DNA of 8,773 nucleotides from a virus (IMGVR_UViG_2695420539_000004); one strand, 5' to 3'; counted from the first letter of the stretch, positions 1 to 8,619 are shown. A program made the numbers and translations. Notes: a model not told the origin generated them from the letters alone.

Positions 1-2747
1 CCGTTAACAATTTCCGGCCCGTTTTCACCGACGATGCCAAACTGCCCGCGCGGGATATAGCCGCCGCTGTCATACATCCCCGCAAAGCCATATCCCCATG
101 ACGGAAAACCACCCGATGGCATCATCACTTTACCGTCTGTATTCACCGTCCCAGGTTGCTGACGCGTCACACTTTCCGGTAGTTTCGCCTTTGCGGCCTC
201 TTTACTGACAACGCCGAGTTTCTCCAGCAACCAGGATACGCCGGATTTGAGGGAGTCCAGCGGATGCATAACCATATTCAGCCCTTCCGCCAACGCCTCC
301 CCGAATCGTCGCCCCATTTCCGCTGCGCTCTGCAGTTCGGCAGAAGTCGACTTAACGGGTGTCAGCAGATCAGTAAACCAGCCCCACAACGCCTGCACTT
401 TATCGCCAATCCACTGGAACACAGGCTTAAGTGGTTCGAACGCGGCACTGACGGGACCTGCCGCTGCTTTGAATCCCTCCACCACACCACCGAGAAACGC
501 GGTGATGGGTTGCCAGTATTTCCAGACAACCAGCGCCACACCCGCCAGTGCAGTAACCACAAGACCTATCGGACTGAGCAGAGCACCTAACAGACCAGAC
601 ACGGCATACAGGGCAACGCGCAGCATCACCAGCGGACCGGATGCCAGTACTCGTAGCACCGCGCCTGCGGCAGTCAGCCCGCCGCGTAGTGCTGCCAGTG
701 GATTCATAAACATCACAGCAACAGCACGTAAACCGGATAATCCAGACCGCAAAAGTGCAACCGGCGCACCTGCTACAGTTTTCAGGACATTTCCCGTCAG
801 TGATGCCGTGCGGCGCAAAGACGACAACGGCGCAGTAAGTAAACCCGCTGCGCTGCCCGTTGAAGCAAGCCCGCGTCGCAGCAGTGCAAGTGGTGCGCCA
901 GCCAGCCAGGACAACGCGCTGCTGGTTCGTGTTACTGCTGCCGTAACGGAAGGTAACGTTTTGATACCCAGCACAGAGAATCCCAGACGGATCACTGCCA
1001 GCGGCCCCAGCACTGCAGCCAACGCCACCGCTAAGGTGCCGAGGCCTACGGTAACCGCAGCCACAACAGCCGCTACTTTCACCAGTGTGCCTGTCAGTTC
1101 CGGGTTAGCTTCCACCCAGCGGCGCAACGCCCCCGTGATGCTTTTCACCGTGTACAGAATATCCATCAGCGGCTGGCGCAGCGTTTCGCCCAGGCTGCTG
1201 AAGGTGTTCTGCGCTCCGGTTTTAACCAGCAACCACTGCGCAGAAAGTGAGTCCTTGTTAATGTCGGATTCTTTCTGCATCGAACCGAGCGCATCATTGC
1301 CCGCTGTCAGTTTTAGCTGGCGCTGCAGTTCCGGCAAGTTGTTTGCCAGTTTCGCCGCATCATCGCCAAACTCTTTACCAAACAACATGGTCATGGCAGA
1401 CAGGCGCTTATCCTGCGGCAGTGCGTTCACCTTCTCCAGCACGCGCTGGATGGTTCCCATCGCATCCTTCGTCATCTGCTTTTCAATCACCTCAGGATTG
1501 AGTTTCAGCAGATTCATTCCTTCAAAGAAACTCTTGCTTTGCATGGTGGCAATGGACAATTCACGCACCATCGCGTTTGCTGCACTGGCTGCAACCTCCG
1601 GCGCAGCGCCCAGTGTCAGGAAGGTGGAACCCAGCGCCGCCGCTTTACGATAATCCAGACGGTCAGCCACACCGCCCAGACGTTGCATCACATCAATGAT
1701 GTCTGCCCCTTTCGACATGGCGTTATCATCCAGATAGTTCAGCGCATCGCCGAGCTGTTCAATATTGCGGGTAGGGATTTTGTAGAGCTGGGCGATTTTC
1801 CCCAGACTTTCTGACAGTTCATCCGCTGGCAACTCAAAGGCTGTTGCCGCCTTTGCTGCCGTGCTGGCGAAGGCCAGCAGGTCACGTTTCTGGTCTTCCC
1901 AGCTGTCGTCAGGGTTTGCGACGTTCATGCGCGCCCCACCTTCAACCAGTGCAGCGAAGTCCACCGCACCGTTTTCCATCGGCAACTGTTCGCTGGCAGC
2001 CTTGATGGCATCCTGCATTTCATAAAAACGTGCAGTGCGGTTGCCATTATCGTCACGCAGACCATTGACCTGCTTTGCCACACCTTTCATGGCATCTTCC
2101 ATGCTGGTATAGCTTTTTACTGCCGCCATCACTGGCGCACCCATTGCCAGCCCTGCAGCCGTGGTGGTGGCTCCGGCTCCTGCAATACGATCGCGCACCT
2201 CCAGCGAACGGGCATAACTGGCACGCGCCGCATTCATCCTGCGCTGAGCTTCCCCCAGTCGCTTCAGGCGCGCCTCCTGTTTCGACAATTCCTGGTTATA
2301 ACGTGATGTTTCACGGGCTAAACGGGCAGTTGCTCCCGCATCATCTTTCGCAGAAATTCCCGCCCGGTACAGTTCTGCACGCACAAGCGCCGTTTGCTTC
2401 TGCAAATATTTTTGTTGTTCTTCCAGGCGTTGGACTGCCAGCGTTTGCCGACCTAAAGCCACAAGGTGCCGTTGTGATGGTTGTTCCATCGCCTCCAGCT
2501 CAGAGCTAAGCAAATTAGCCTTCTGTCTGGCATAGTTCAGCCTGTCGCCTAACTTCTTGTTATCGGCCTGCAGCTTGCGAAATTTTTCCAGGCTGTTACC
2601 CGCCTGATTGAGTTGCTTTAATGCGTCACGGGAGTTTCTGATTGCGCCAGCCAGCTCTTTCGAACTGGCCTGTGCAGCACGGAATGGGCGGGTGAGTTTG
2701 TCAACCGCATTAAGAATGACCTGCAGGCGCAGGTTATTATCACTCAT
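1..2747 (-). CDS. T: Phage tail tape measure protein (P2 gpT-like); C-terminal end runs off the window start
   Basis: Minus-strand ATG at 2747..2745 (acgATGAGTGATAATAACCTG -> MSDNNLRLQVILNAVDKL...) opens a frame with no stop down to position 1 (last residues ...GQFGIVGENGPEIVNG). Spot translations at about 1000-1250 and 1-270 stay in frame. Coiled-coil-like N-terminus (Q/E/L/R/A-rich) followed by a long Ala/Val/Leu/Gly-rich hydrophobic region, typical of tape measure proteins. Position downstream of E/E' matches P2 order FI-FII-E-E'-T. The ORF track shows no minus-strand stop-bounded ORF here, consistent with an open frame. Confidence 0.85.
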   Translation of the reverse strand, partial: MSDNNLRLQVILNAVDKLTRPFRAAQASSKELAGAIRNSRDALKQLNQAGNSLEKFRKLQADNKKLGDRLNYARQKANLLSSELEAMEQPSQRHLVALGRQTLAVQRLEEQQKYLQKQTALVRAELYRAGISAKDDAGATARLARETSRYNQELSKQEARLKRLGEAQRRMNAARASYARSLEVRDRIAGAGATTTAAGLAMGAPVMAAVKSYTSMEDAMKGVAKQVNGLRDDNGNRTARFYEMQDAIKAASEQLPMENGAVDFAALVEGGARMNVANPDDSWEDQKRDLLAFASTAAKAATAFELPADELSESLGKIAQLYKIPTRNIEQLGDALNYLDDNAMSKGADIIDVMQRLGGVADRLDYRKAAALGSTFLTLGAAPEVAASAANAMVRELSIATMQSKSFFEGMNLLKLNPEVIEKQMTKDAMGTIQRVLEKVNALPQDKRLSAMTMLFGKEFGDDAAKLANNLPELQRQLKLTAGNDALGSMQKESDINKDSLSAQWLLVKTGAQNTFSSLGETLRQPLMDILYTVKSITGALRRWVEANPELTGTLVKVAAVVAAVTVGLGTLAVALAAVLGPLAVIRLGFSVLGIKTLPSVTAAVTRTSSALSWLAGAPLALLRRGLASTGSAAGLLTAPLSSLRRTASLTGNVLKTVAGAPVALLRSGLSGLRAVAVMFMNPLAALRGGLTAAGAVLRVLASGPLVMLRVALYAVSGLLGALLSPIGLVVTALAGVALVVWKYWQPITAFLGGVVEGFKAAAGPVSAAFEPLKPVFQWIGDKVQALWGWFTDLLTPVKSTSAELQSAAEMGRRFGEALAEGLNMVMHPLDSLKSGVSWLLEKLGVVSKEAAKAKLPESVTRQQPGTVNTDGKVMMPSGGFPSWGYGFAGMYDSGGYIPRGQFGIVGENGPEIVN

Positions 2748-3176
2748 CGTTGGCCCCGCTTCTCTGAATCGCTTTATACCGCCATTCCAGCACTTCGGTC
2801 AGCGGCATAACGTCAGTAACGGATGGCGGCCAGTGAAAAATGGTGGCGATATCTGCCACCAGATCGTCAACCGTCAGGCTGTCGGTAAACCGGCAAGCAC
2901 CGACTTCTTCAACAAAAAAGTGACAACCTCAACCGACATAGCAGTGAGATCTGCCGGGTCCATCTCTGCAATTTCCTGTGCAGTCAGTGCCGGGCTGGAG
3001 ATGCGGGGGATCACGATCATCATCGCGTTCACATCCATATCCATAATCGCCTGCAGGCGTGTACCGCGCAGCGCACCGGACTGCGGTTTGCGCAGCACAA
3101 TTTCGGTGATTTCTGTTTTACCACGCTTGATAGGGGTATCCAGTTGAATGGTCTTTTCAGTCTGCTTATCGCTCAT
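2740..3176 (-). CDS. E': gpE+E' fusion chaperone produced by programmed -1 ribosomal frameshift (about 145 aa)
   Basis: After codons 87-88 (TTT TTG) of E, a -1 shift onto codon GTT (2913..2911) gives 57 further sense codons (VEEVGACRFTDSLTVDDLVADIATIFHWPPSVTDVMPLTEVLEWRYKAIQRSGANDE) ending at TGA 2742..2740. That stop overlaps the tape-measure ATG (2747..2745). I counted 174 nt = 58 codons with no internal stop. Confidence 0.7.
2874..3176 (-). CDS. E: Tail assembly chaperone (P2 gpE-like), 100 aa
   Basis: ORF-track minus ORF MSDKQTEKTIQLDTPIKRGK...VTFLLKKSVLAGLPTA. Sits between tube and tape-measure genes as in P2 and lambda (G/GT equivalent). Weak SD (AGGA) upstream. Contains slippery heptamer near its 3' end. 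Confidence 0.8.
   Translation of the reverse strand: MSDKQTEKTIQLDTPIKRGKTEITEIVLRKPQSGALRGTRLQAIMDMDVNAMMIVIPRISSPALTAQEIAEMDPADLTAMSVEVVTFLLKKSVLAGLPTA
2913..2919 (-). other. Slippery heptamer T-TTT-TTG for the E/E' -1 frameshift
   Basis: + strand caaaaaa (2913..2919) is TTTTTTG on the coding strand, in phase X-XXY-YYZ with the E frame (acT TTT TTG). Position is 12 codons before the E stop, as in tail-chaperone frameshifts of the lambda G/GT type. Confidence 0.65.
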
Positions 3177-3230: not shown

Positions 3231-3746
3231 TCAGAGGCCGAGGGCGTTACGGTGTGCTTCCATCAGGTCCACACCGTCCACGATTTCCACCATGTTGATG
3301 AGGTCCACTTCATAGAGCACCTCACCATTGATGGTCAGCTTCGCGTAGCTGTTGGTACTGGTCACTTTGGTGGTGTTGCTTTCGCCCGTCTTCCACTCGC
3401 CGGAATCCACTTCTTTGTGACGTCCACGTACCACAAGCTCCACGGCCTGCACTTCCCCGGTATCATCACGCTGGATAGAGCCGGTAAAGCGCAACTGGAT
3501 GCCATCCACCGTGGCTTTGCCCATCTGTTTAAACAGCAGCAGTTCAGTACCACCAATGGAAAATTCTGTGTCCAGAGCACTGTCATCAAGCCCCAGATCC
3601 ACATCCACTGCACCCGGCATTCCGCCGCCGCGATACTTCTCATATTTGCGGGTGAATTTCGGCAGCGTCAAAGACTCTACGATCCCCTGCCAGTTGTTCC
3701 CGTCGTTAAACAGGTTCAGATGTTTTAATTTGCGTGGTAAAGCCAT
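3231..3746 (-). CDS. FII: Tail tube protein (P2 gpFII-like), 171 aa
   Basis: ORF MALPRKLKHLNLFNDGNNWQGIV...YRGGGMPGAVDVDLGLDD... matches my recollection of the P2 FII N-terminus (MALPRKLK...) and the YRGGGM motif. GGGGA SD 5 nt before ATG. Immediately downstream of the sheath gene. Confidence 0.9.
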   Translation of the reverse strand: MALPRKLKHLNLFNDGNNWQGIVESLTLPKFTRKYEKYRGGGMPGAVDVDLGLDDSALDTEFSIGGTELLLFKQMGKATVDGIQLRFTGSIQRDDTGEVQAVELVVRGRHKEVDSGEWKTGESNTTKVTSTNSYAKLTINGEVLYEVDLINMVEIVDGVDLMEAHRNALGL

Positions 3747-3755
3747 GTTGTCCCC

Positions 3756-4928
3756 TTACGCGCTGACCTGGCTGGCAAAATTCACCAGGTACTGATCGGT
3801 GATGCGCTGACGCAGCATCAGATTTTCAAGTGGCGGCACTGGCGTGTAGTCATAGTCGATGGTGAGTTTTCCGGCTTTCAGCGTGTCTTTGTCGTTCACC
3901 GACTCGTCCAGCCAGCAATCACCACCAATGAGATACCCCTGACTGACCAGGCTGCGCATTTTGGCGCGGATACCTTCGATAATGTCGCGGGCCAGCGACG
4001 GGTTCAGCGGTTTGTCCACCGCCCACATATGCGCTTCTGCCATCGTGTCCATCAGTACCTGCGCCGTGCGGGTGTAGTTTTCGAAGGCAAAGAGCGGGTC
4101 ATCACTCAGGCAGCGGGAACCCCAGAAGCGGAAACCGTCTTTGCGGATAAGCGTGGTGACGTCGTTCTGGTTAAGCAGTCCCGCATCGGTTGCCGGGTCC
4201 TGCAGATCCCAGAACACATCTGCAGAAATTCCGGTGACACCGTTCACGCCCACGTTGGACAGGCTTTTGTGCCACCCGGTCTGCTCATCAATTTTGGCGC
4301 GCAGACCAAGCGCACGGGCGGTGGCATATGCCGTTGCTTCGGCATTCAACACCGTATCCCAGCCAGTAAAGTCGGGCCAGATCAGCATTCCTTCGCGCTG
4401 GCTGAAGTTTTCACGGTAAGTGATCGCCTCCTGTACCGTCTTGCAGCCATACGCTGACAGGTAAGCAAACCCACGCAGGCTTTGCGCCACGCTCAGCAAC
4501 TCAGTCGCAACGGCTTTGTTATCGTGACCTGGCACGCCGAGAATGCGCGGTTTAACGCCGAGCTGTGACTGGGCAGATAGCAGGGCTTTCATGCCTGTTT
4601 TTTTACCTTCAGCAGTCACAGCGCCGATGATATTGGTCGTGGTTTCGTCTTCCGTTTCACCCTGCGGCACACGCACAACAACGGTCACGGGTTTTGCCTG
4701 GTCAGCGATGGCATCCAGCGAACGGGCCAGAGTACCGGACTCACCCGCTTTACCGCTGGCAGTCAGCACATCAGTGATCAGCACGGGTTTATTAAGAGGA
4801 AACATTTTTGCATCGGCATCATCGCCCGTGCAGATCATACCCACGATGGCGGTGCTCACCGTGGTAATGGATCGGGTGCCTTCGTTGACTTCAACAACGC
4901 GCACCCCGTGGTGGTAATCCTGAGCCAT
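3756..4928 (-). CDS. FI: Contractile tail sheath protein (P2 gpFI-like), 390 aa
   Basis: [57 protein letters not shown]... with C-terminal ...[32 protein letters not shown]. Closely resembles remembered P2 FI along its whole length. Strong SD AGGAGG (4938..4943 on + as cctcct) 9 nt upstream of ATG 4928. Confidence 0.92.
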
Positions 4929-4954: not shown

Positions 4955-5022
4955 GCTTCGCCCTATGTTGAAGTGATTGTGCCTGACAAACAGCTAAGCG
5001 CAGTTGTACCGTTATTCACACA
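4955..5022 (-). promoter_or_regulatory. Candidate P2-type activator-dependent late promoter for FI-FII-E-T (TGT-N12-ACA dyad)
   Basis: On the transcribed strand the 142-bp invertase-FI spacer contains TGT-gtgaataacggt-ACA (+ coordinates 5005..5022), the dyad signature described for Ogr/Delta-activated P2/P4 late promoters. Dyad centre is about 85 nt upstream of the FI ATG. The -10 is ambiguous (CACAAT or TCAACA candidates) and there is no -35, as expected for activator-dependent promoters. Confidence 0.4.
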
Positions 5023-5070: not shown

Positions 5071-5637
5071 TCAGGGAGATTCATTGCTCTTATTTGCCGG
5101 AAATTTTCTATAAATAGTAGAAACGCCTACATCAAAAATCAGTGCAATACGCTGTCTTGATTCTCCGGCCTCAAGTAAACGCCCAATCTGTGCCCACTGT
5201 TCGGTGGTCAACTTAGGACGGCGTCCACCTACTCTGCCTTTGGCACGAGCTGCAGCCAGCCCTGCCCTGGTACGTTCAACTATCAGTTCGCGTTCCATTT
5301 CAGCCAGGGCACCCATAACATGAAAAAAGAAACGGCCCATTGGGGTACTGGTATCAATACTGTCAGTCAGGCTTCGGAAATTCACGCCACGCTGGCGCAA
5401 CTCTTCTATCAGCGTAACAAGATGCCGCATACTGCGCCCCAGTCTGTCCAGCTTCCAGACAACCAGAGTGTCTCCTGCCGATAGTGTCCTGAGCAGTTTT
5501 TTAAGCCCCGGTCTGTCGGACTTAGTGCCACTGATTTTATCCTCAAAAATCCGCTCACATCCCGCGCAGTTCAGTGCATTACGTTGCAAATCGGTGTTCT
5601 GGTCATTTGTTGACACGCGTACATAGCCAATAAGCAT
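5071..5637 (-). CDS. Site-specific DNA invertase, small serine recombinase of the Hin/Gin/Cin/Pin family (188 aa from the conserved start)
   Basis: MLIGYVRVSTNDQNTDLQRNAL...DTLVVWKLDRLGRSM...GVNFRSLTDSIDTSTPMGRFFFHVMGALAEMERELIVERT...C-terminal HTH (GVSTIYRKF). Catalytic Ser in VRVSTNDQ. Conserved start MLIGYV at 5637 has SD AGGGGA 6 nt upstream. The ORF-track start at 5682 adds 15 non-conserved residues ([15 protein letters not shown]) and is probably not used. Confidence 0.9.
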   Translation of the reverse strand: MLIGYVRVSTNDQNTDLQRNALNCAGCERIFEDKISGTKSDRPGLKKLLRTLSAGDTLVVWKLDRLGRSMRHLVTLIEELRQRGVNFRSLTDSIDTSTPMGRFFFHVMGALAEMERELIVERTRAGLAAARAKGRVGGRRPKLTTEQWAQIGRLLEAGESRQRIALIFDVGVSTIYRKFPANKSNESP

Positions 5638-5664: not shown

Positions 5665-6057
5665 ATGATGCCAGTTAGCCATTATCTCTGCATTTTCATA
5701 AACGTTGGTTTGGGAGAAGCGGCTAAAAGGAATGTAGGGACAGGGGCGAATCAGATACCTGATATGGGTAGCTTCACGCTTTCTGTTTCAGGTACTGGAT
5801 ATCAAAAATTACCATCAGGTTTTATTCTTCAGTGGGGCTCAATCGGCGCACCAGGCATTGCACAGGATGTAGTAACCCATTTCCCGATTGCATTTCCAAA
5901 CAGATGTCTGCGTGTTTTGGTCTCACAAGACTACACACCAGATAGCGGGGCTGTTGGTTATATTGCCTGTGCAGGTTTTAGTCCCGACCCGGTTAAATTT
6001 ATATCCAGAGCCAGTACTCCTGGCCTCGGCGCTTCATTTTTAGCGTTAGGCTGTTAA
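5665..6057 (+). CDS. Silent alternate tail-fibre C-terminal segment (Sv'); expressed only as a fusion to the H constant region after inversion
   Basis: ORF-track frame 5665..6057 reads through the crossover site as ...[23 protein letters not shown]..., the same GLGE phase as H (LLTYLGLGEG). Functional exon is 5719..6057, about 113 aa, ending TAA 6055..6057 and followed 21 bp later by tfa'. The ATG at 5665 lies outside the segment, has no proper SD and is antisense to the invertase leader, so stand-alone expression is unlikely. Confidence 0.6.
5693..5718. repeat. Invertase crossover site (gix/hix/cix-like 26-bp site), left end of invertible segment
   Basis: TTTTCATAAACG-TT-GGTTTGGGAGAA: 12-bp half, 2-bp core, 12-bp half. 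20/26 identical to the Hin hix consensus as I recall it (TTATCAAAAACCTTGGTTTTCAAGAA). Inverted relative to the 7558..7583 site (22/26 match to its reverse complement), with complementary cores TT/AA. Confidence 0.75.
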
Positions 6058-6078
6058 TTTAGCTATATGGAGTGAAAA

Positions 6079-6519
6079 ATGAATTACATATATTCCGCGA
6101 CTACAAACTCTTTCTATCCGCTGGAGATGAAAGAGGATTACACTCAAGCTGACTCATGGCCAGATGATGCTGTTGAAGTTGATGAGCAAGTGTATATTGA
6201 GTTTTCCGGATTACCGCCGAAAGGAAAAATCCGTATCGCTGGAGAAAATGGTTTTCCTGCATGGTCCGAAATTCCACCACCAACACATGAGGAACAAATT
6301 GCTGCAGCCGAACTGGAGAAGCAGCAATTGATTAATCAGGCCAACGATTATATGAACAGTAAACAATGGCCTGGTAAAGCGGCTATTGGTCGTCTGAAAG
6401 GTGACGAACTGGCGCAATATAATTTGTGGCTGGATTACCTGGACGCACTGGAACTGGTCGATACTTCCGGTGCGCCAGATATTGAATGGCCTACGCCTCC
6501 GGCAGTTCAGGCCAGATGA
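6079..6519 (+). CDS. tfa: Alternate tail-fibre assembly chaperone (Tfa', Mu U'/P2 gpG family), 146 aa
   Basis: MNYIYSATTNSFYPLEMKEDY...QYNLWLDYLDALELVDTSGAPDIEWPTPP: characteristic Tfa N-terminus and conserved C-terminal motif. GGAG SD 7 nt upstream (6068..6071). Lies directly after Sv' within the invertible segment. Confidence 0.85.
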   Translation: MNYIYSATTNSFYPLEMKEDYTQADSWPDDAVEVDEQVYIEFSGLPPKGKIRIAGENGFPAWSEIPPPTHEEQIAAAELEKQQLINQANDYMNSKQWPGKAAIGRLKGDELAQYNLWLDYLDALELVDTSGAPDIEWPTPPAVQAR

Positions 6520-7093
6520 CATCCGGCGCGGTGCTGGTATCTGTTGCCGTCACCGCGTCAATGTAATCCAGCACAGCGTTAAGTCGGGTGGTTTCTGCCT
6601 GCGTCAGCTTCCGCCCGGCCTGCAATTTCAGTTGAATCAGACTGATGGAAGCCATTGCAGTATCAATCAGTGACTGACGCTGTGCTTCTGCCGCGTCTAC
6701 TGCGGCGCAATGCTGTGCCTCAGTATCGGTCACCCATTTCTCACCATCCCATTTATCGAATGGCGTTAACGGGGCGATAGTGGTTGTATTTTCAGGGTAA
6801 TCACCCGGAGTTGTGATTTCTTTGGCGTCTCCCGTTTCGGTGTTATAGATGATTTCACCGCGATGGTCTGGCACATACTCCCATGAGTTTAAATCTGCTG
6901 AACGGCAGATTGCATAACCAGCTTTATGTATACCTGGTGCATCTAAACAAGAACATGCCGGGATACCGACGCCAACAGCAAGATATTCAGTTGATGTGGA
7001 AAGATATTCCCGCGTCTTGCTGTCGTAGTTAAACACGGTCACATCACCCGCTACCGTGGCAATCAGTTCGCTGTTTAATTTTGCCTGTGCCAT
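6491..7093 (-). CDS. tfa: Tail-fibre assembly chaperone (Tfa, P2 gpG / Mu U family), 200 aa; currently in the expressed orientation
   Basis: MAQAKLNSELIATVAGDVTVFNYDSKTREY...RLNAVLDYIDAVTATDTSTAPDVIWPELPEA. Start ATG overlaps the H stop (TAATG at 7091..7095). Typical enterobacterial Tfa C-terminal motif. Confidence 0.9.
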   Translation of the reverse strand: MAQAKLNSELIATVAGDVTVFNYDSKTREYLSTSTEYLAVGVGIPACSCLDAPGIHKAGYAICRSADLNSWEYVPDHRGEIIYNTETGDAKEITTPGDYPENTTTIAPLTPFDKWDGEKWVTDTEAQHCAAVDAAEAQRQSLIDTAMASISLIQLKLQAGRKLTQAETTRLNAVLDYIDAVTATDTSTAPDVIWPELPEA

Positions 7094-8619
7094 TATGCAG
7101 CCCTCACAATGAAGTTAAATGCGACGTTGCGCGGCCGGTTTTCAGTGGCAACAGGAACGATTTTAGATGCATCAAAGCTAAAGTTTACAGTCCCATTACC
7201 TGCCCCTGAAGGCGCAAGAGTTAATCCTAAAGTTTGTGACACATTCTCAACAGTGACGCCAAATGCACCATCACAATAGATACTTGGGTACAATTGAGTA
7301 TTACCAAACTTGCCAATTATATTTCTGATGGCATCGCCCTGCGATGATAAGATTGCACGCCCAACATCAACCCCGCGCCCGTCATCCCAGCCGCGAATAA
7401 ATTCACCGCGTAAATCAGGCAATTTATTTGTCGGGTAAGCCTTTGCCAGTTCCGGGTATTCTTCAGCAGAAAAAGCCGCACCATTGCATTTCAGCCAGCC
7501 TGTTGGCGGAGTGGCTGAAGGCCACGGAACAGGCACACCAACAGGCAATGCAGAGCCTTCTCCCAAACCAAGGTATGTGAGAAGACCAGCTACATCCTTT
7601 CCACTCAAATTGGTAAGCGTATTGTCCAGCGGTTGTTTACCTGCCAGCGCATTAAGCATTGTCGTGGCAAAGTTCGGATCATTCCCCAGTGCCGCCGCCA
7701 GTTCGTTCAGTGTATCCAGTGCAGCAGGTGCAGAACCCACCATTCCTGCAATCGCCGATTTCACAAAAGCCGTAGTGGCAATCTGTGTATTGTTGACCGA
7801 CTGCGCCGCCGTGGGGGCTGTTGGCGTTCCGGTGAGTGCCGGACTCGACAACGGTGCTTTTAGTGCCAGCGCATTGTTAATGGTGGTACTGAAATTCGGA
7901 TCATTGTTAATGGCTGCGGCTATTTCTTTCAGCGTGTCCAGCGTGGCTGGCGCACCATTAATAAGGGCCGTCAGTGCCGCCTGTACAAACGCAGTGGTCG
8001 CAACCTGCGTGGTATTATTCCCCGCCGCTGGCGTTGGCGCTTTGGGGGTTCCGGTAAATGTCGGGCTGGCTTTTGGCGCGTACTGTGAATGCGGGTCCGG
8101 TGCGGCAAGATGTTTTGCCATCTGATCATCCGCGTACACCTTCAGCTCCAGTGCCTTGTCATCCACATACTTGCGGGTTGCCAGCACTACAGCAGGGTCG
8201 ATTTTCAGGGTGATATTGTCCGTGCTGCTGGTAATCAGCACCATGCGCACGGTCTGAGTGCGCCCGCTACCTTCAGCCAGTTGCGGCTTATAGCTTTCCG
8301 GGCAGTTGCCCACGGCAATCAATGCCCCGGACTCATCAAACAGACCCACTTCACGTATCCACCAACCGCCCTCGTTTTCAGGGATCACCTGTTCGGCAAT
8401 AATCTGGCTGCTGTTCTGCGGGTCGATATAAAGCATATTCAGCGCAGCCCGGCGTTTCTCATTTACCAGTGCCGTCTGTTTTGCGTCCGGCGTTGGCAAT
8501 ACTCCACCGCCATCGCCCACCGCCATATGGGTAATTTTTAGCGGCACACCGAGCGCGGCGGCGCTGGCAAGTTTCGCCGCGCCAATATCCGTCAGCAGGG
8601 TATAAAATTTTGTGCTCAT
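7093..8619 (-). CDS. H: Tail fibre protein (P2 gpH-like constant N-terminal part 7584..8619 fused to a variable C-terminal receptor-binding part 7093..7557 with tail-collar motifs), 508 aa
   Basis: N-terminus MSTKFYTLLTDIGAAKLASAAALGVPLKITHMAVGDGGG resembles P2 H. Two fibre-shaft repeats (...NNTQ[VI]ATTAFV...LDTL.E.AAA...NDPNF.TT..NALA.K.P). C-terminal part has tail-collar-type motifs (PTGWLKCNGAAFS..YPEL...LPDLRGEFIRGWDDGRGVD.GR). Start ATG overlaps the stop of the upstream gene (ATGA). Confidence 0.92.
   Translation of the reverse strand: MSTKFYTLLTDIGAAKLASAAALGVPLKITHMAVGDGGGVLPTPDAKQTALVNEKRRAALNMLYIDPQNSSQIIAEQVIPENEGGWWIREVGLFDESGALIAVGNCPESYKPQLAEGSGRTQTVRMVLITSSTDNITLKIDPAVVLATRKYVDDKALELKVYADDQMAKHLAAPDPHSQYAPKASPTFTGTPKAPTPAAGNNTTQVATTAFVQAALTALINGAPATLDTLKEIAAAINNDPNFSTTINNALALKAPLSSPALTGTPTAPTAAQSVNNTQIATTAFVKSAIAGMVGSAPAALDTLNELAAALGNDPNFATTMLNALAGKQPLDNTLTNLSGKDVAGLLTYLGLGEGSALPVGVPVPWPSATPPTGWLKCNGAAFSAEEYPELAKAYPTNKLPDLRGEFIRGWDDGRGVDVGRAILSSQGDAIRNIIGKFGNTQLYPSIYCDGAFGVTVENVSQTLGLTLAPSGAGNGTVNFSFDASKIVPVATENRPRNVAFNFIVRAA
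7558..7583. repeat. Invertase crossover site embedded in the H coding sequence (constant/variable junction), right end of invertible segment
   Basis: TTCTCCCAAACC-AA-GGTATGTGAGAA. Left half is identical to the reverse complement of the right half of the 5693..5718 site (TTCTCCCAAACC). Encodes LLTYLGLGE (H residues 346-354). Confidence 0.75.
7630..8067 (-). repeat. Diverged intragenic tandem duplication (2 x about 72 codons) encoding the tail-fibre shaft repeat
   Basis: H residues about 185-256 and 259-330 align (SPTFTGTPKAPT...NNTTQVATTAFVQAA...LDTLKEIAAAINNDPNFSTTINNALALKAP vs SPALTGTPTAPT...NNTQIATTAFVKSA...LDTLNELAAALGNDPNFATTMLNALAGKQP). Visible at DNA level as two similar roughly 215-bp blocks. 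Confidence 0.55.

Follow-up and report, generated by a model that had tools for sequence, protein, structure and literature searches.

The question raised by this locus is whether a prophage of the P2/186 type can change the tip of its tail fibre by inverting a segment of its own DNA and, if so, from which lineage that segment comes. The DNA examined was a viral stretch of 8773 bases (IMGVR_UViG_2695420539_000004), referred to here as the window, which is the tail module of a P2/186-like Escherichia coli prophage. An earlier note on this DNA had described within it an invertible host-range switch like the G segment of phage Mu, flanked by two crossover sites, accompanied by an invertase gene and inserted into a P2-type tail module. 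Our analysis indicates that the locus is very probably a two-state, invertase-driven switch of the tail-fibre tip, belonging to the lineage of the e14 P segment and its invertase Pin. The physical description given in the note held up, and what had to be revised concerns the descent of the cassette and how unusual the arrangement is.

The two proposed hix/gix-like sites were recovered both by a repeat search and by a consensus scan. Site 1, the site proximal to the invertase gene, occupies 26 bp at positions 5693-5718 and reads TTTTCATAAACG TT GGTTTGGGAGAA, with its TT core at 5705-5706. Site 2, the distal site, occupies positions 7558-7583, reads TTCTCCCAAACC AA GGTATGTGAGAA with its AA core at 7570-7571, and lies, as had been proposed, inside the tail-fibre gene H, where the constant part gives way to the variable part. 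Each has the form usual for sites of this family, a 2-bp core with an imperfect 12-bp half-site on either side. The inner half-sites are identical (12/12; GGTTTGGGAGAA), the outer halves agree at 8/12 positions, and the TT and AA cores are complementary, as the inverted orientation requires. Together the sites make up the longest inverted repeat of the region (repeat I1, 27 nt, 85% complementary). When the whole 8773 bases were scanned for the hix/gix consensus, allowing up to 3 mismatches, only two matches were returned, and these were sites 1 and 2, with one mismatch each; 0.01 matches were expected, and none of 200 shuffled sequences contained two or more. As a control, the same scan was applied to the public records of Mu, P1 and e14, and it returned exactly two sites in each, namely gix, cix and the P-segment sites, centred on the annotated crossover points of P1 and on the annotated G-segment boundaries of Mu. 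No third crossover site, of the shufflon or Min type, was found in the whole window at this threshold. A multiple-inversion system such as Min of p15B, or the three-repeat locus of one P2-like prophage of enteropathogenic E. coli (EPEC), is therefore not supported, two sites only being found in the window.

G-L-G-E is encoded by both sites, in matching codon phase, which raises the possibility that the inverted repeat is a by-product of paralogous fibre coding sequence and that any inversion occurs by general homologous recombination. The repeat does lie in coding sequence, at a YLGL.E motif that is conserved among tail fibres, including H of P2 and S of Mu. However, the stretch common to both sites is just 15 bp, too short for efficient RecA-dependent exchange, and the 26-bp dyad with its 2-bp core fits the consensus on both halves, including the half at 5693-5704 that is not fibre coding sequence. 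In addition, the invertase gene stands at a fixed distance of 68 bp from the site centre in the window, in e14 and in many genera. We consider an origin as a coding by-product to be extremely improbable, and take the repeats to be the crossover sites of an invertase-driven switch.

Between the centres of the two cores lies the invertible segment, 1865 bp at positions 5706-7570, in agreement with the 1.9 kb given in the note. It contains two convergent pairs of genes, each consisting of a fibre tip and its assembly chaperone. The pair on the minus strand is in the expressed position: Sv, the current variable C-terminus of H (154 amino acids, positions 7093-7557), carries a Collar domain at H residues 361-408 (Pfam, 3.4e-15) and is paired with Tfa (200 amino acids, 6491-7093; Caudo_TAP, 8.6e-32). 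The pair on the plus strand consists of Sv', an alternative fibre C-terminus of 112 amino acids that has no promoter and is currently unexpressed (5719-6057; Gp53-like_C, 4.5e-15), and its chaperone Tfa' (146 amino acids, 6079-6519; Caudo_TAP, 1.5e-37). Sv and Sv' showed no significant similarity to each other by BLASTP. The 3' ends of the two chaperone genes overlap by 29 nt (6491-6519), with a W-P-x-x-P C-terminal motif encoded on each strand; the same 29-nt overlap is found in e14 (tfaP/tfaE) and in phage Cartapus, whereas U and U' of Mu lie 28 nt apart.

The H gene as it stands (7093-8619, minus strand) encodes 508 amino acids, of which 154 lie downstream of GLGE, and its constant N-terminal part (7584-8619) contains the N-terminal domain Phage_tail_fib (6.5e-65). 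The earlier note proposed that inversion would exchange these 154 residues and Tfa for Sv' and Tfa'. When the segment was inverted in silico, the 354-residue constant part of H was joined in frame to Sv', giving a fibre of 466 amino acids followed by Tfa', as proposed. This predicted protein matches a fibre annotated in strain UTME-13 at 453 of 466 residues (97%), with the same junction, and the flipped window aligns from end to end (100%) with the UTME-13 genome as one uninterrupted match of 96.7% identity. No tandem repeats were found in a scan of the H region, and self-comparison by BLASTP detected no internal repeat in H. Residues 181-340 of H (window positions 7600-8080) are 80% identical to residues 253-412 of S of phage P1, which fall in the constant part of that protein, where repeated elements are annotated; this match shows that fibre shaft modules have been exchanged between P2-like and P1-like phages, independently of the invertible tips.

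Just outside the segment, as the note had also stated, an invertase gene of the Pin/Cin/Gin/Hin family of small serine recombinases is located at positions 5071-5637 on the minus strand, encoding 188 amino acids, within the range of ∼185-195 expected for the family. Its start is MLIGYVRVST at 5637 rather than the upstream ATG at 5682, so that 68 bp lie between the start codon and the centre of site 1. The protein matches the Pfam domains Resolvase (residues 3-135, 2.2e-53) and HTH_7 (residues 138-181, 1.4e-15), matches the chains of the Gin crystal structures 3uj3 and 4m6f over residues 1-184 (E=8e-93), and, in its helix-turn-helix, matches the Hin DNA-binding domain 1hcr (6.6e-09). The nucleophile motif YVRVS(9)T is present and MLIGYVRVSTNDQ aligns with Gin residue for residue. 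Compared with public records, the invertase is 100% identical to that of phage Cartapus, 85% to PinE of e14, 78% to Cin of P1 and 73% to Gin of Mu, a close relationship to characterised invertases, which are able to replace each other; the gene is intact. Where Val is found in the crystallised Gin chains (3uj3 and 4m6f), the invertase of the window has the wild-type Met. This Gin variant (M114V) is Fis-independent, so the Met would fit a normal dependence on Fis.

Both orientations occur among related genomes. In a census of 5426 complete E. coli genomes, counting loci with at least 80% query coverage, 109 genomes carried the segment in the orientation of the window and 96 carried it flipped. 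A closely matched pair was provided by the yak isolates NQ3 and LS4, whose chromosome lengths differ by one base. No difference separates the flanks of the locus in these two strains (8.8 kb and 9.1 kb, 100% identity), while the 1905-bp interior is exactly inverted, with breakpoints inside the 15-bp stretch common to both sites; their invertase is 99.5% identical to that of the window, and their sites are near-identical to those described here. The single assembly of strain 13P477T (CP019275, NZ_CP019273) includes one P2-like phage at two places, the chromosome and a circular 37-kb 'plasmid', with the cassette in opposite orientations. Inversion of loci of this kind has been reported before: in EPEC E2348/69, coexisting orientations were detected in two P2-like prophages by whole-genome sequencing and polymerase chain reaction (PMC4272514), and inversion of a tail-fibre segment in Salmonella Fels-2 was attributed to the pin homologue fin (PMC7953296).

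A further indication came from 79 loci with a gene for a related invertase, taken from species-representative genomes. In the usual pattern, a site is centred 59-95 bp (mostly 68) from the invertase ATG, and a second site lies 1.3-2.2 kb away. Contigs cut short upstream of the invertase gene ended 64-131 nt from the ATG in 20 of 32 cases, in many genera of Enterobacterales, and many of these contigs begin inside the crossover site (e.g., AAACCAACGTTT...). Because a 15-bp repeat alone should not break an assembly, we take these contig ends to indicate that the cultures used for sequencing contained the segment in both orientations. Contig breaks that recur in this way could offer an inexpensive means of spotting segments that are actively inverting.

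By analogy with the Hin/Gin family, the reaction would proceed as follows. Invertase dimers would bind both 26-bp sites, and synapsis would be assisted by an enhancer in the 5' end of the invertase gene, bound by Fis. Both sites would then be cut with a 2-nt stagger at the central TT/AA, half of the complex would rotate by 180 degrees, and religation would leave the 1865-bp segment inverted. In the orientation of the window, the late V-W-J-I-H operon would produce H with a StfE-like collar-domain tip, together with a TfaE-like chaperone, and in the flipped orientation it would produce the 354-residue constant part joined to the 112-residue gp53-like tip, followed by a TfaP-like chaperone. A population of lysogens would thus release two kinds of virion, presumably with different receptor specificities.

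The putative Fis-dependent recombinational enhancer was placed, by position and homology, at window positions 5548-5619, corresponding to nt 19-90 of the invertase gene; the same interval of cin is annotated in the P1 record as the enhancer of C inversion. These 72 nt are identical to P1 cin at 56 positions and to Mu gin at 52. They contain two Fis-like 15-mers of the form G-N13-C (5602-5616 and 5553-5567), with centres ∼49 bp apart, and a 17-nt block, TCAACAAATGACCAGAA, that is invariant in the window, e14, Mu and NQ3.

A candidate promoter for the invertase gene was also found in the short spacer between site 1 and the ATG, at positions 5665-5693 on the minus strand. It consists of a -35-like ATGCAG (5688-5693), a 17-nt spacer and an extended -10, TGGCATCAT (5665-5673). 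Among 18 distinct sequences (those of the window, e14, Mu and 15 loci from other genera), the intergenic consensus is 'aATG ... tggcat..t' with fixed spacing: 'aATG', 'TGGCAT..T' 17 nt further on, and then 'CTTTT' are conserved, while the 17 nt between vary freely. Such a pattern of conservation, in a spacer that is otherwise variable, suggests a promoter. The -35-like element abuts site 1, so invertase bound to the site would overlap it, and autoregulation of the gene is therefore suggested.

Several observations weigh against the conclusion that this particular locus is an active switch. A flipped twin of the exact prophage was not found among the complete E. coli genomes; the only near-identical genome, that of strain SL124 (NZ_CM194971; 99.9%), has the same orientation as the window, and since the best flipped genome reaches just 96.7% identity, the evidence for activity comes from relatives. 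Inversion with crossover at the core was found for close relatives, not for the copy in the window itself. Neither copy in 13P477T has an invertase annotated as intact, each being recorded with a frameshift or an internal stop; long-read indel errors may account for this, or else a different invertase of that strain may have carried out the inversion in trans. The position of the enhancer was assigned by positional homology, which is confounded with coding constraint. To separate the two, we compared the fraction of identical codons, among codons specifying the same residue, between gene nt 19-90 and the rest of the gene in four sequences; no pair of these four that included the window had a significant excess at synonymous sites (p=0.15-0.7), and the only pair to reach p=0.013 was Mu versus P1. 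A simple sigma-70 scan did not detect the invertase promoter, its hits being not above those in shuffled sequences. Finally, the presumed difference in host range is drawn from the presence of two unrelated tips (collar versus gp53-like).

An alternative is that the locus is a frozen relic, in which the parts look intact and the orientation is fixed, for example by a defective enhancer or an unexpressed invertase. Such a state would be consistent with a single orientation for this exact sequence, and with an enhancer and a promoter that are both putative. However, the invertase ORF is not truncated, keeps the catalytic motif and matches the Cartapus enzyme at every residue, the crossover sites, with one mismatch each to the consensus, are no worse than the functional gix, cix and e14 sites (1-2 mismatches), and sibling isolates with a 99.5% identical invertase and near-identical sites occur in both orientations. 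We regard a fixed orientation as quite unlikely, and return to the two-state switch as the better account of the locus.

A different question is whom the switch serves. An open reading frame (ORF) that we term the stub ORF runs from 5665 to 6057 on the plus strand; it consists of 18 codons from outside the segment followed by Sv', and RefSeq annotates it as a protein. It is built like stfE/stfE2 of e14, with a start in ATGATGCCA, outside the segment, and a reading frame that passes through the site. In e14, the chimera StfE2 starts at the stub next to pinE, reads into the inverted segment and is reported to block adsorption of T2 (PMC12529663). By analogy, the switch of the window might also, or mainly, serve the lysogen: the product of the stub ORF, or of its counterpart with Sv in the flipped state, would be expressed in the lysogen with its chaperone and would act as a decoy, subject to phase variation, by which a surface receptor is hidden from other phages, and the invertase might flip e14-type segments at other places in the host genome in trans. 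Cross-reaction with such segments is plausible because the proximal site is 26/26 identical to that of e14. If this were true, acquisition of a P2-like prophage would reprogramme a defence of the host.

Several lines of evidence argue against a function on the side of the lysogen. The simple sigma-70 scan detected no promoter reading rightwards into the stub ORF, and Sv' is just 25% identical to the C-terminus of StfP. A better explanation of the ATGATGCCA block is that, read on the opposite strand, it is the extended -10 of the invertase promoter (TGgCATnnT): its conservation reaches the T two bases past CAT and is accompanied by the ATG 17 nt upstream, a pattern that points to a promoter, not to a start codon. 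As a true start of the stub ORF, ATGATGCCA is the less likely of the two assignments. RefSeq starts a 'gp53-like domain-containing protein' at the ATG at 5665, which is that -10 seen from the opposite strand. Moreover, the prophage looks complete and virion-competent, so a function in the phage would suffice. On balance, a decoy expressed by the lysogen, with the invertase toggling e14-type segments, appears improbable, and we favor the view that the switch acts on the tail-fibre tip of the virion.

With regard to lineage, the note's comparison with Mu stood for mechanism and not for descent. The switch is Mu G-like in its predicted mechanism, and its sequence places it closer by descent to the P segment of e14 and to Pin. 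The reverse complement of site 1 is identical at all 26 positions to the P-segment site proximal to pinE in e14, and both loci share the crossover repeat TTGGTTTGGGAGAAG; in e14 this repeat, given as TTGGTTTGGGAGAAG(G) and contained in site 1, was reported, from experiment, to be the inversion site (PMC12529663, 2025). The distance from site centre to invertase ATG is 68 bp in both loci, and the segments are similar in size (1797 bp in e14 and 1865 bp in the window). Tfa is 88% identical to TfaE over 200 residues, Sv is 57% identical to the C-terminus of StfE, and Tfa' is 61% identical to TfaP over 102 residues. The two loci differ in their setting, which for e14, a cryptic prophage of E. coli K-12, is a truncated fibre gene in a defective lambdoid element and for the window a full-length P2-type H in an apparently complete prophage, and in the gp53-like nature of Sv', which sets it apart from StfP.

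The locus resembles those of Mu and P1 in general design. In all of these, the invertase gene is outside the segment, one site lies in the fibre gene at the constant/variable junction and encodes LGL.E, and within the segment two tip-and-chaperone gene pairs converge. The placement of the site upstream of the invertase gene, which is transcribed away from the segment, agrees with Mu, whereas cin of P1 points towards the segment and its 3' end is overlapped by cixL. The core is TT/AA, as in P1, and TC/GA in Mu. The segment, at 1.9 kb, is shorter than that of Mu (3.1 kb) or P1 (4.2 kb), and U/U' of Mu and P1 match the cassette proteins weakly, with 30% identity over 73 residues. A cassette derived from Mu was rejected, as U/U' and S of both Mu and P1 have almost no similarity to the cassette proteins.

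The second part of the earlier interpretation was that a Mu/P1-type variation cassette had been inserted into a P2 chassis, making the locus a mosaic. The P2-type tail module was borne out, with the order I, H, (G), FI, FII, E/E', T, on the basis of Pfam matches, prophage context and identities to P2: FI is 68%, FII 53% and E 44% identical to the P2 proteins, and residues 1-354 of H are 50% identical to residues 1-364 of P2 H. It was also correct that canonical P2 has no invertase between G and FI; fun(Z) is located there, and the phage has one fixed tip and one chaperone (G). The similarity between the two H proteins ends exactly at site 2, at residue 354 of the window H. Within P2 H, codons 375-383 (2358-2383 of the P2 locus examined) contain TTATCGAATATCTCGGTTTACAGGAA, a degenerate gix-like sequence that agrees with gixL of Mu at 22 of 26 positions and encodes YLGLQE, where the window H has its site. 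We read this sequence as a relic from a time when the phage, now devoid of an invertase, had a tip that could be inverted or exchanged. The end of H similarity at the site and the P2 relic at YLGL.E together suggest that the site marks a general point of tip exchange in this phage family, and P2 with its fixed tip, instead of being the default chassis, seems to represent one of several variants.

The arrangement is not unusual, contrary to what the note implied. The order FI, invertase, cassette, H occurs in ∼205 complete E. coli genomes, and with the same neighbours, FI and H, it also turns up in prophages from six or more further genera (Dryocola, Siccibacter, Pseudocitrobacter, Pantoea, Mixta and Enterobacter). 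The layout is also present in Peduoviridae phages with an annotated DNA invertase, namely the Escherichia phages Cartapus and 500465-1 and a phage named 'P2' from O157:H43, and Klebsiella phage records match as well. In the P2-like loci of EPEC E2348/69, Fels-2, Cartapus and 500465-1, the order is FI, invertase, [Sv' Tfa' / Tfa Sv], constant H, I, as in the window, and the cassettes are alleles. Cartapus has the same proximal site as the window, and its interior is shared with the window in short stretches only; 500465-1, with its annotated DNA invertase, matches 82% of the query at 94% identity. One of the EPEC P2-like prophages differs in having three repeats and four variants, whereas the window has two sites only.

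The remaining genes are those of a P2-type tail. All genes of the window but two are on the minus strand, and every assignment is backed by Pfam. The tape measure gene T occupies 1-2750 (minus), E 2874-3176 (minus), the tube gene FII 3231-3746 (minus) and the sheath gene FI 3756-4928 (minus), and the start of I lies at the end of the window, beyond H (minus). A slippery heptamer, TTTTTTG, for E', is found near the end of gene E at 2913-2919 (minus), the position expected for the -1 frameshift that gives E+E' in P2-like phages, and in the near-identical genome RefSeq has a separate 'GpE family' ORF. Upstream of FI, on the minus strand, an Ogr-type late promoter element of the form TGT-N12-ACA (TGTGTGAATAACGGTACA) is present at 5005-5022, a dyad typical of binding by Ogr-type activators; its centre is 83 bp upstream of the FI start, and the activator site annotated for the F promoter of P2 lies at that same distance. 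Only ∼50 bp consequently separate the end of the invertase gene from the late F-operon promoter. The chromosome of SL124, which is 99.9% identical to the window, provides the context: its prophage adjoins ybjL and has the full P2-type set of head, lysis, tail, replication and regulatory genes, so that, judged from gene content, it looks complete and able to make virions.

The class to which this switch belongs is long known and very common, as the note recognised; the architecture is already present in public phage records, and inversion has been shown in P2-like E. coli prophages. No new principle emerges, and the outcome is a clean annotation of the locus together with its assignment to the e14/Pin lineage rather than to that of Mu. 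The switch explains recurrent assembly breaks and conflicting annotations, in which fibres of 466 and 508 amino acids and stub ORFs with a 'gp53-like domain' are recorded. Because it would determine which receptor-binding tip the phage carries, it matters for the prediction of prophage host range, for phage typing, and for the engineering of P2-like phages and tailocins.

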